Shown piece by piece: positions 45,403-48,715 of a stretch of DNA of 64,000 nucleotides (its first letter is position 1; each line of letters starts with the position of its first letter). The translations under genes and the position numbers were made by a program. The stretch comes from a virus (Duplodnaviria; Caudoviricetes). Under the pieces are notes generated by a model. It was given only the letters and a program-made list of their open reading frames with translations. It did not search any database and was not told where the DNA came from. Location of the stretch: the IMG/VR virus record IMGVR_UViG_3300011008_000002; one strand, given 5' to 3'.

Positions 45403-45499
45403 CTCCTTTCCGCGTACAATCTTAAATGTATGTTAAAATCCATTATTTTTAAGCTTCGGACACAAGGACTTAAAGTATTAGAGAGGAGATGATGGGAAA

Positions 45500-46111: not shown

Positions 46112-46772
46112 TAAAGCAGAAGCTCCTCATCCGAGGATAGACTCAGATAATGCTTCTTACTATATCGAATTTGACAAGACAGAGGAGTACTTTGATTTCT
46201 TTGATAATGAAATAGCATTTATTAAAGGAGTCGAAAGAAATGTAAGGAAACATCGTTTCTTAAGGATAACGTATCCGAAGTATCTTAAGGAAGTGGTTGG
46301 ACTTAAGGAATGTCAAGTATTATCCAATATTAAAGCTGATGATAAAAGTGGTGTAAAGTTGGAGTTACATCACGGACCTATTCTCACGTTATTTGATACT
46401 TGTGAAATTGTTACAAGAGCTTTTCGCGCAAGGGGTGTTAAAAATATTAATACTTTCTCAGTAGCGAATGAAGTGGTGGAGCAACATAGGTTAAATAATG
46501 TGAGGGTAATGTTCTTATGTAAATCAGTTCATCAGAAGGTACATGACGAAGGAATATACATCAATTATCAGCAGGGCTTTGGCGATACTTTACGGTTCAT
46601 AGAACTTTTCTCAGATGGAATTGATAAAGCCATGAAAATGAAAATCAATGATTACATTGGTTGGAGTATTGACCATGACTCTACAGATAATGATATTCTA
46701 AAGATTGCTGATACTATGAGGGAATGGGGAAATAACGATTTTGATAACTTTGATTCCATTCCTATTCAATAA
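46080..46772 (+). CDS. HNH-like protein, paralog of 54268..54966
   Basis: C...ELHHGPILTLF...LCKSVHQKVH. Confidence 0.6.
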   Translation: MMKQMPGIIFDKAEAPHPRIDSDNASYYIEFDKTEEYFDFFDNEIAFIKGVERNVRKHRFLRITYPKYLKEVVGLKECQVLSNIKADDKSGVKLELHHGPILTLFDTCEIVTRAFRARGVKNINTFSVANEVVEQHRLNNVRVMFLCKSVHQKVHDEGIYINYQQGFGDTLRFIELFSDGIDKAMKMKINDYIGWSIDHDSTDNDILKIADTMREWGNNDFDNFDSIPIQ

Positions 46773-46785
46773 GGGGGTTTATATT

Positions 46786-47295
46786 ATGACGGATGTAGCA
46801 ATTATTGTTTTATTGATAATCTTGATTGGTGTGATTATATACCAAATCAAAATGGATTTCTATAATAGACAGAAGATGTTTGAACTTCAGATAGAGGGTG
46901 CAAAAGGACAACAGGCAGTACTCAAAGATATGAGTTGGGAAGATATAAAGAAAACCGTAAACGATATCATATCATTTAACGTAAGTACATATATCATCAC
47001 AAATGGCTTACAAAAAATGAAGAATGATGAGTTGTCTCTGATGTGGACTATGATACTTGGAGAATTATGTACAAGAATTGATATGTCTATATCAGATGAG
47101 ATAAAACGACAAGCATTCAAATCCATATCGCAAGATTATTTCAGTCGTTTTATTAAAGATTCCGTACAGATAACGATTATCTATCAACTAGAGAATAATA
47201 AAGATAACTCTGTAAATAATCGGTTATCGCGGATACAACAGACTCAATCCAATCTTCCTGATATAACTCAACGTGTAACAAATGCAAAAAAATAA
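46786..47295 (+). CDS. N-terminally anchored membrane protein
   Basis: Start revised to ATG 46786 behind AAGGGGG; TM VAIIVLLIILIGVIIY; palindromic terminator 47288-47323. Confidence 0.7.
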   Translation: MTDVAIIVLLIILIGVIIYQIKMDFYNRQKMFELQIEGAKGQQAVLKDMSWEDIKKTVNDIISFNVSTYIITNGLQKMKNDELSLMWTMILGELCTRIDMSISDEIKRQAFKSISQDYFSRFIKDSVQITIIYQLENNKDNSVNNRLSRIQQTQSNLPDITQRVTNAKK

Positions 47296-47335
47296 TGGGG
47301 TACGGTCGTACCCCATTATTTTTCTTCAGGTATAC

Positions 47336-47842
47336 AAAAAATGAACAAGGATAGCTTATTATTTGCTATCCTTGTTCCGTTACCTTTATCGGGAGTTTAC
47401 CCGCTTGCAAGACATTTTGTCTTACTTTACCGGTTGGCGGTACTCAAATCTTTCCATGCTAACCAACCGTTTCTCCTTTCCGACACTATCTGCAAGGAAC
47501 ATCCTCACCGATATATGGTCACGGAACGTCCGCAACCAATGGAGAAACAACTTCAAATCACATTGTCCCTTTTATTTCAGTCTTGTCATAGATTATGCCC
47601 ACTCACCCGTTGGCTCACTTAGATTCATGACCATCCTCTAAGTCTTTTATTGATTGGGTGTCTTTATCTCACTTACCGGTTTTCAAAATGGTCTGCTTAA
47701 GTCAGCCATTACCCACTCATAAGTGTCCCTCTAGGAAACGAAACCATCCCGTGCACAAGATAAATTCCGTCGGTCTTCGATAAGCACAGCCCGGGTGACT
47801 CCATATACCAGCCGGGACATTTATTGACAGCGAGTCTCTTGA
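47336..47842 (-). ncRNA. candidate large (~500 nt) structured ncRNA F
   Basis: GC-enriched, no credible ORF, many stems with G-U pairs on -, ends in GAACAAGGATAGC/GCTATCCTTGTTC plus ATTTTTTGTAT. Confidence 0.6.
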
Positions 47843-48715
47843 TTATCTGGATTTTATTTGGCGACTGTTGTTCTTCCCTATCCCAAGAGAAGCCATATTT
47901 AACATTGGGACTAAAATATGGTTGAAATTAAAACGTATATCCATCAATTCTTTATACGACATATCGAGTTCGTCAACTCCAAATGTCTTATTATCCATAT
48001 GAAGTATAAACAATGATTCACTGTTAAACTCTCTATATACATCAATCGGTAAACGAAAATACTTATAGTCATCTATAGTATTAACCATGTACTTCGTCGC
48101 ACCTTCATAATCGAATTTAACAATGTATTTCAAATACCTCTTTATGATAGGAACAATGCCTGTCATATGATAACGCGACAACACATCATCACTGATGCCT
48201 TTTATTGCGATATCGTCTGTATAAGAGTTGTAAAATACTTCATATGCTACGTGTCTGGACTTAAGGTTGGTTTGTAACTCATCCTTGCCCAGTAAGAAAT
48301 AAATGTCATACGTATGCTTCTCTCTGAAGTTAATATATTCACCTATTTCTGTTTGATAAACATATCTCTTTAGAAATATAGCATCACGTTTGACTGAAAA
48401 AATATCAACTGCATCTAGTTCGTTTCTTTCTCCAAAAAGCAACCTATATTTCCTGAAGAACTCCTCTAGCTTCTTCGGAATGGTTCGCTCATTAGGATTT
48501 TTGGAATACCTCAACTTTCCTATAACGGAGTCTCTTTCAACTCCTTTCGGAATTTTCTTTAATGACTCAATCATCTTTGGAGGAAGTAGTTGTTCCTCCT
48601 GTATGATAGAAAGTCCTCCATCTTTCATATCATACTCGATGATATCCCCGATGAACAAATCTGTTGGATCTGTCCATCGGGATTTTTCAAGGAGTTTTCT
48701 TGTGTCTTCTGTCAC
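47843..48715 (-). CDS. minimal family-B DNA polymerase-like palm protein
   Basis: Motif A-like IIEYDMKDGGLSI and motif C-like IFSVKRDAIF; no exonuclease domain (290 aa). Confidence 0.55.
   Translation of the reverse strand: MTEDTRKLLEKSRWTDPTDLFIGDIIEYDMKDGGLSIIQEEQLLPPKMIESLKKIPKGVERDSVIGKLRYSKNPNERTIPKKLEEFFRKYRLLFGERNELDAVDIFSVKRDAIFLKRYVYQTEIGEYINFREKHTYDIYFLLGKDELQTNLKSRHVAYEVFYNSYTDDIAIKGISDDVLSRYHMTGIVPIIKRYLKYIVKFDYEGATKYMVNTIDDYKYFRLPIDVYREFNSESLFILHMDNKTFGVDELDMSYKELMDIRFNFNHILVPMLNMASLGIGKNNSRQIKSR

Follow-up and report, generated by a model that had tools for sequence, protein, structure and literature searches.

The stretch of DNA analysed here (hereafter the window) comprises 64,000 nucleotides of a 229-kb virus record from IMG/VR, the completeness of which is estimated at 97%. 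Phage proteins of the window are 28-35% identical to those of the AR9/PBS1 group, jumbo phages of Bacillus, Staphylococcus and Listeria, which indicates a distant kinship. On the minus strand, four tightly packed genes form an operon, the final member of which has a GTG start overlapping the stop codon of the upstream 295-aa gene and encodes a protein of 290 aa. As stated in the preliminary description of this locus, the 290-aa gene is directly followed by approximately 500 nt of non-coding, GC-enriched sequence: no credible open reading frame was found in 47335-47842, directly 3′ of the stop codon, and the GC content of this stretch is 43.7% compared to 37.3% for the genome. The terminator that had been placed behind it was also found, together with a second one. 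The features of the locus are the following.

47843-48715, minus strand: gene of the 290-aa minimal PolB-like protein (open reading frame; homologue of AR9 gp238)
47335-47842, minus strand: large structured non-coding RNA of ~485-508 nt, as predicted from covariation; kept in nine distinct relatives
47789-47818, minus strand: 5′ hairpin P1 (GUCCCGG...CCGGGC) around the conserved CUGGUA...GUC, with covarying stems
47746-47761, minus strand: hairpin with a conserved UGCA loop, taken from the alignment; the minimum free energy fold of the window sequence pairs AUCUUG with CGGGAU
47687-47710, minus strand: hairpin AAUGG-CUG...CAG-A-CCAUU, covariation read from alignments
47602-47662, minus strand: long-range helix GACACC/GGUG enclosing the central hairpin, covarying
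47618-47642, minus strand: central hairpin with the 13-nt loop GGAUGGUCAUGAA; covarying stem, near-invariant loop
47581-47589, minus strand: segment AUGACAAGA, likely pseudoknot partner of the loop sequence GUCAU (compensatory change in one relative, L025)
47487-47538, minus strand: two adjacent hairpins (UGGUUGCGGA-CGU-UCCGUGACCA and UAUCGGUGAGGA-UGU-UCCUUGCAGAUA), both covarying
47384-47495, minus strand: 3′ core with the invariant AGAAACGG and the helix CGGUUGG/CCAACCG around UAGCAUGGAAAG (covariance model R1)
47335-47378, minus strand: intrinsic terminator at which both the RNA and the operon end, a GC-containing 13-bp hairpin followed by UUUUUU
47286-47320, both strands: second, bidirectional terminator hairpin (terminator scan and sequence), common to the convergent plus-strand gene 46741-47295

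The convergent gene 46741-47295 encodes 184 aa, including a hydrophobic helix at the N-terminus. It occupies the place that the membrane protein gp239 has after gp238 in AR9, suggesting that the synteny around the insertion site of the RNA is old. In AR9, which lacks the RNA, the operon of four genes is conserved, as is the convergent gene of the membrane protein.

The early and late promoter motifs of AR9 (taken from PMC5312081) were searched for at the 5′ side of the RNA and neither was found, in agreement with the earlier observation that the stretch has no internal promoter motif. A locally conserved 5′ motif has no other occurrence in the genome, and no recurring motif was detected. Between the stop codon of the 290-aa gene and the RNA no terminator was detected, either in the sequence or by the terminator scan. 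In AR9, operons end at intrinsic terminators of the sort observed here (PMC5312081). Probably the RNA is co-transcribed with the operon and makes up the 3′ part of its transcript; the two ends of the RNA and any processing are predictions. An AR9-type late motif (AACA-N6-TA/G) was seen elsewhere on the minus strand (45423-45434), 21 nt upstream of the gene of a 1007-aa virion structural protein; in the window as a whole this motif is not enriched (69 sites versus 113 in shuffles).

Structure and conservation of the RNA

Seven stems had been listed in the preliminary description, all of which are present and five of which are kept by compensatory changes, far above chance. When position 1 of the RNA is set to window position 47842, they lie at positions 25-54 (CCCGG/CCGGG), 118-124 and 167-173 (CACTTAT/GTAAGTG), 133-156 (AATGG/CCATT), 201-225 (CTTAGA/TCTAAG), 295-302 and 367-374 (GTTTCTCC/GGAGAAAC), 374-412 (CGGTTGG/CCAACCG) and 418-436 (GTAAGACA/TGTCTTGC). 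The minus strand of the region folds with -174 kcal/mol (z = -5.3 compared to shuffles), and the fold of the plus strand has a z of -4.3. Among the paired cells of the alignment described below, G-U combinations were far more frequent than A-C combinations (58 versus 7), an excess which shows that the RNA corresponds to the minus strand.

Relatives of the locus were collected by a protein search, which returned 63, and the surrounding DNA was compared for 15 of them. The RNA-bearing loci number nine, namely the window, L001, L009, L011, L012, L018, L019, L022 and L025, all from metagenomic AR9-like jumbo phages with proteins at 59-69% identity. In all nine, 450-620 nt of homologous non-coding sequence directly follow the stop codon on the same strand, and conservation of the RNA begins immediately past that codon. 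No gene was called in the gap of most relatives and no reading frame is conserved. The DNA identity of the RNA is 60-74% (up to 82% in the 3′ core), on par with the 68-73% of the coding gene beside it. At the same place in every RNA-bearing relative a hairpin with a U-run was found, each with a different sequence.

RNAalifold on the raw alignment predicted 48 pairs, 25 of which show compensatory changes. Overall at least nine helices covary, in an alignment of nine sequences in which some helices depend on few events. The strongest statistics were obtained for the 3′ core, for which the covariance model R1 scored 79-109 bits on all nine sequences. In the R1 alignment 94% of the cells are paired (85% in shuffles) and 15 cells carry double changes (4.7 in shuffles); none of 500 shuffles matched the observed covariation, and in controls with slid partners pairing dropped to 18-51%. 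Taken together, the alignments indicate that the RNA is a real, conserved and covarying structure.

The individual helices changed in different ways. P1 is formed by stems such as CCGG/CCGG, CGGA/UCCG, CGGG/CCCG, UGGA/UCCA, CAGG/CCUG and UGGU/ACCA. Four sequences close the UGCA loop with a G-C pair and three with an A-U pair, resulting in GUGCAC or AUGCAU. The hairpin at 47687-47710 became GCGG...CCGC in L009, CAAUUCG/CGGAUUG in L001 and ACGG/CCGU in L012, whereas the long-range helix CACC/GGUG reads CACU/AGUG in L012 and CGUC/GACG in L019. The stem of the central hairpin is different in each relative and pairs in all (for instance CUUAGA/UCUAAG, CUCAA/UUGAG, AGUUCAA/UUGAACU, AUUGAUAA/UUAUCAAU and CCAGUGA/UUACUGG), while six of the nine sequences share the same loop, GGAUGGUCAUGAA, and two more differ from it by one or two bases. 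Changes in the two adjacent hairpins at 47487-47538 include UGGC/GCCA in L012 and UGAU/AUCA in L022. The 3′ core further contains the helix GUAAGAC/GUCUUGC and the hairpin CGGG-UAAACU-CCCG.

Within the central loop, GUCAU is complementary to a conserved AUGAC about 30 nt downstream. Both sides are altered in L025 (loop AUCAU, partner AUGAU), and this single compensatory event gives weak support to a likely pseudoknot between the two segments. The near-invariant unpaired segments of the RNA are GGAUGGUCAUGAA, AGAAACGG, UAGCAUGGAAAG and UGCA.

Two palindromes, UGCA and UCAUGA, occur in the conserved loops. A role of GUGCAC/AUGCAU as a dimerisation palindrome was considered, but a closing pair on the UGCA loop is the simpler reading and dimerisation is left as speculation. 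In L018 (4144-4345) and L025 (4260-4464) an insertion of ~100 nt was observed within the helix GUAAGAC/GUCUUGC. Within this insertion the UAGCAUGGAAAG...UACC module is present a second time, suggesting that the module acts as a portable structural unit.

Alternatively, the stretch could hold no functional RNA and be what is left of a mobile element or of a gene that has decayed, or else act as DNA, as an origin or a site of packaging. The variability of the site downstream of the gene would fit this, since L024 has a 121-aa gene there and additional genes are found in L011, L015 and L018. However, the strand-specific G-U excess and the compensatory changes point to selection on RNA, no reading frame is shared and in most relatives no gene is called, and the sequence matches no intron or ribozyme family and occurs once in each of the two complete genomes that bear it, G000 and G002. 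We therefore consider this explanation highly improbable.

The RNA was compared to known families. A search of the 64-kb window with Rfam 15, which includes GOLLD, ROOL, OLE, raiA, HEARO, RNase P, tmRNA and group I and II introns, gave no match at the gathering thresholds. At E values up to 10 only terminator-like noise was seen on the RNA region, and at E values up to 5 no family recurred in ten relatives. By blastn no match to the RNA was found in 50,697 phage records. When IMG/VR was scanned with a sequence pattern, only contigs of two known relatives were recovered. A single pattern match in a JGI metagenome (L023) sits inside a 610-aa open reading frame and a single one in GTDB (L032, a Chthoniobacterales MAG) scored only 18 bits; both were rejected as chance. 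A looser pattern for the central loop matched 25 times in IMG/VR, 17 of these matches being one repeated conserved coding stretch, and apart from the known contig none fitted R1. Two segments, GAGGAUGGUCAU and GCGGGUAAACUCCC, resemble what we take to be RNase P motifs. This identity was rejected, as none of the RNase P models scores even at an E value of 10, and the first of the two segments forms the loop of a hairpin. Based on these searches the RNA is a new, lineage-specific family outside Rfam, and the proposal of a new large class of non-coding RNA thus holds in both its covariation and its lack of a database match.

Three relatives with proteins of 42-44% identity have non-coding gaps of 400-850 nt at the same position (L013:3802-4288, L026:3802-4196 and L015:3805-4660). 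With filters off, R1 found nothing credible in these three or in L024, L017 and L003. The gaps hold short motifs that look like those of the RNA, UAUUGAAGAC and a UGAAACUCC hairpin, and may represent a diverged version of it or an unrelated RNA. The RNA family may thus be older than R1 can detect. The spot after the mini-PolB gene is variable: in L015 (3805-5526) the 850-nt gap is followed by a 288-aa gene, and extra plus-strand genes lie beyond the RNA in L018 (4542-6015) and L011 (5181-6431).

The 290-aa PolB-like protein

The 290-aa protein had been described as PolB-like with the aspartates of motifs A and C. An AlphaFold2 model built with 32 homologues (pLDDT 91.2, pTM 0.86) bears this out. 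The top 50 Foldseek matches in the PDB were all family B DNA polymerases, the best having an E value of 4e-7 (Tgo/KOD/Pol alpha). With VIA-align the model was aligned to residues 394-902 of RB69 gp43 (Z 11.5, 252 residues, rmsd 4.8), to the HSV-1 polymerase (Z 10.1) and to Pol alpha (Z 9.8), and a comparison to viral structure models gave the same PolB picture, with herpesvirus UL8 in addition. Taken over RB69 gp43, Pol alpha, the herpesvirus polymerase and the inactive PolB-like UL8, the folds align over 240-250 residues with Z 10-11.5. According to the model, the protein thus has the palm-fingers-thumb fold of family B. The alignment covers only the C-terminal half of the PolB enzymes, the N-terminal and 3′-5′ exonuclease domains being absent.

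Palm polymerases hold their metals at the end of the first palm strand and in a beta-hairpin (PMC7824862), and acidic residues are found at both places. D29 closes the palm strand 20-30, the place of motif A, and is 99% conserved; when aligned by eye, D-M-K-D-G-G-L-S-I-I corresponds to the motif A consensus D-x-x-S-L-Y-P-S-I-I. D111 lies in the palm beta-hairpin, is 100% conserved and is the sole acidic residue of positions 109-112. These positions read K-K/R-D-A and not D-x-D (DTD), which as motif C is the signature of the PolB family (PMC7824862). In 150 representatives D29, D111, K57, G66, N98, K133 and Y136 are 99-100% conserved. The protein is probably active as a polymerase.

No Pfam family matched the protein, including PF00136 and PF20286, RVT_1 did not match either, and a profile search against PDB sequences returned nothing; the protein is filed under PHROG 21037 (function unknown). 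In contrast to PolB enzymes, the members of its family measure only 250-290 aa. A profile search of 1.84 billion representatives yielded 1115 protein clusters at 50% identity, nearly all of 245-280 aa and including AR9 gp238. This very large unannotated family (~250 aa) keeps only the catalytic half of PolB with the active-site aspartates intact, and its members would rank among the smallest polymerase-fold enzymes.

The same genome encodes a separate, divergent PolB of 654 aa (PF20286), which has no sequence similarity to the 290-aa protein; we therefore rejected the possibility that the latter is a fragment of the replicative polymerase. No primase of the DnaG type or the archaeo-eukaryotic type was found in the genome by Pfam, which makes a primase-like role a reasonable guess. 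The mini PolB-like protein could thus be the primase of the phage.

In the RNA clade the proteins carry a basic C-terminal tail (residues 272-290, e.g. GKNNSRQIKSR). The protein of L024, which lacks the RNA, ends in GGIMNK, and more distant homologues are tail-less.

Proposed association of the RNA with the PolB-like gene

Besides a new class of RNA, a particle composed of the polymerase and the RNA had been proposed, in which the RNA serves as the template, primer or scaffold of the PolB-like enzyme encoded on the same transcript. The positional evidence is in line with such a lineage-specific particle: the RNA is on the strand of the gene and starts no more than ~30 nt from the stop codon in nine out of nine loci, even when different genes lie downstream (L011, L018). 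The retained active-site aspartates also fit, as do the two glycines that can be read in the sequence at the PolB steric-gate position (SLYPS), which could permit the use of ribonucleotides. Moreover, the basic tail that is present in the RNA clade and missing in L024 may be a slight hint of co-evolution.

The distribution of the RNA argues against this. The RNA clade is essentially one of the 1115 protein clusters, so that a family of some 1100 clusters functions without the RNA and the two do not co-occur across it. Directly after the homologues in Bacillus phage AR9 (gp238), Listeria phage LPJP1, L017 and L003/L004 the next gene follows at once, leaving no room for the RNA. R1 had no match anywhere in the complete genomes of AR9, LPJP1 and G001, whereas the positive controls G000 and G002 gave one each. 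In L024, the protein of which is 65% identical, the RNA was lost or was never present, and a translationally coupled 121-aa gene (L024:3849-4214) and a plain terminator are found in its place. The expectation that homologues keep a covarying RNA downstream was thus borne out for the nine loci and failed for most of the family. Neither retron-like flanking repeats nor a template-like repeat was seen. The constant adjacency is also explained by an RNA that has no promoter and must therefore sit at the end of the operon, and it is in part an ascertainment effect, since all relatives were obtained via the protein. These data are strong evidence that the mini-PolB family works without the RNA and that the RNA is not an obligatory partner of the neighbouring enzyme. 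We regard such a particle as unlikely; its scaffold would be a PolB in place of a reverse transcriptase, and a single jumbo-phage lineage would have acquired it.

A further possibility is that the RNA acts only in cis as a 3′ untranslated region, shielding the operon mRNA from 3′ exonucleases or tuning termination or upstream expression, with no role in trans. This would agree with a location behind the last gene of the operon, where two tandem terminators and no own promoter were found, and with the fact that relatives dispense with the RNA. However, an element of ~490 nt in which nine or more helices covary, a pseudoknot is probable and unpaired segments are near-invariant goes far beyond what the protection of an mRNA needs, and the same operon terminates by a plain hairpin in relatives. 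In addition, the unpaired segments are the most conserved part, which indicates specific contacts. An exclusively cis-acting element thus appears quite improbable.

We favour, with a probability of about 0.55, a new large structured RNA of ~490 nt, confined to one clade of uncultured AR9-like jumbo phages, that is free-standing and not an obligatory cofactor of the enzyme. Located on the minus strand after the last gene of the operon and ending at the intrinsic terminator, this RNA would have no own promoter and would be produced as the last part of the operon transcript. Its dense structure and the terminator hairpin would then leave a stable RNA, with or without processing at the 5′ side. 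Its action would depend on its fold and on the conserved loops; it could, for instance, serve as a scaffold, a decoy or a self-assembling particle, in the last case like other large phage RNAs, and the neighbouring enzyme would be independent of it.

Comparison with known systems

Among known RNAs, GOLLD and ROOL, large ornate RNAs of phages and Firmicutes, are similar to the present RNA: they are phage-borne, several hundred nt long with many covarying helices and GC-enriched within an AT-rich genome, and they have no known protein partner and no known function. The present RNA differs in that it does not match their Rfam models, has a far narrower spread and is located at the 3′ end of an operon. 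GOLLD and ROOL are often found near tRNAs, whereas no tRNA gene was found in the 64-kb window of the present RNA. Cryo-EM has shown that GOLLD and ROOL form RNA-only homo-oligomers (bioRxiv 10.1101/2024.12.08.627333). It is possible that the present RNA likewise forms multimers consisting of RNA only. Large ornate RNAs without an assigned function are seldom found, and each new family has opened new RNA structural biology, as with the multimeric cages of ROOL and GOLLD. The present RNA is compact with strongly conserved unpaired segments, and it occurs in phages of unusual biology that are kin to AR9 and PBS1, two uracil-DNA phages with genes for multisubunit RNA polymerases of their own.

Small RNAs derived from bacterial 3′ untranslated regions likewise come from the end of an mRNA and share its terminator. 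They are typically 50-150 nt and act by base-pairing, in contrast to the ornate RNA of ~490 nt described here.

The msr-msd of retrons and the non-coding RNAs of defence reverse transcriptases are structured RNAs beside a polymerase gene on the same strand, as is the case here. In contrast to these systems, the neighbour has a PolB fold and is not an adjacent RVT_1 protein, the RNA is downstream and not upstream, the pairing is missing from nearly the whole protein family, and the context is one of phage core genes and not a defence island. The sole RVT_1 gene of the genome is located ~144 kb from the RNA, beside an endolysin gene. Given that distance, and LPJP1, which has three RVT_1 genes and no RNA, a link between the RNA and this reverse transcriptase gains no clear support from the few genomes compared; no RVT_1 gene was found in AR9 and G001. 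The gene lies outside the window (L035:1414-2643, plus strand, corresponding to G000:C1:4413-5642), adjoins an amidase-SH3 endolysin gene and has an ortholog of 76% identity in G002. Its 409-aa product contains YMDD and the motif IGSQISQ, which fits the pattern IGxxxSQ that is presumably typical of the enzymes of diversity-generating retroelements.
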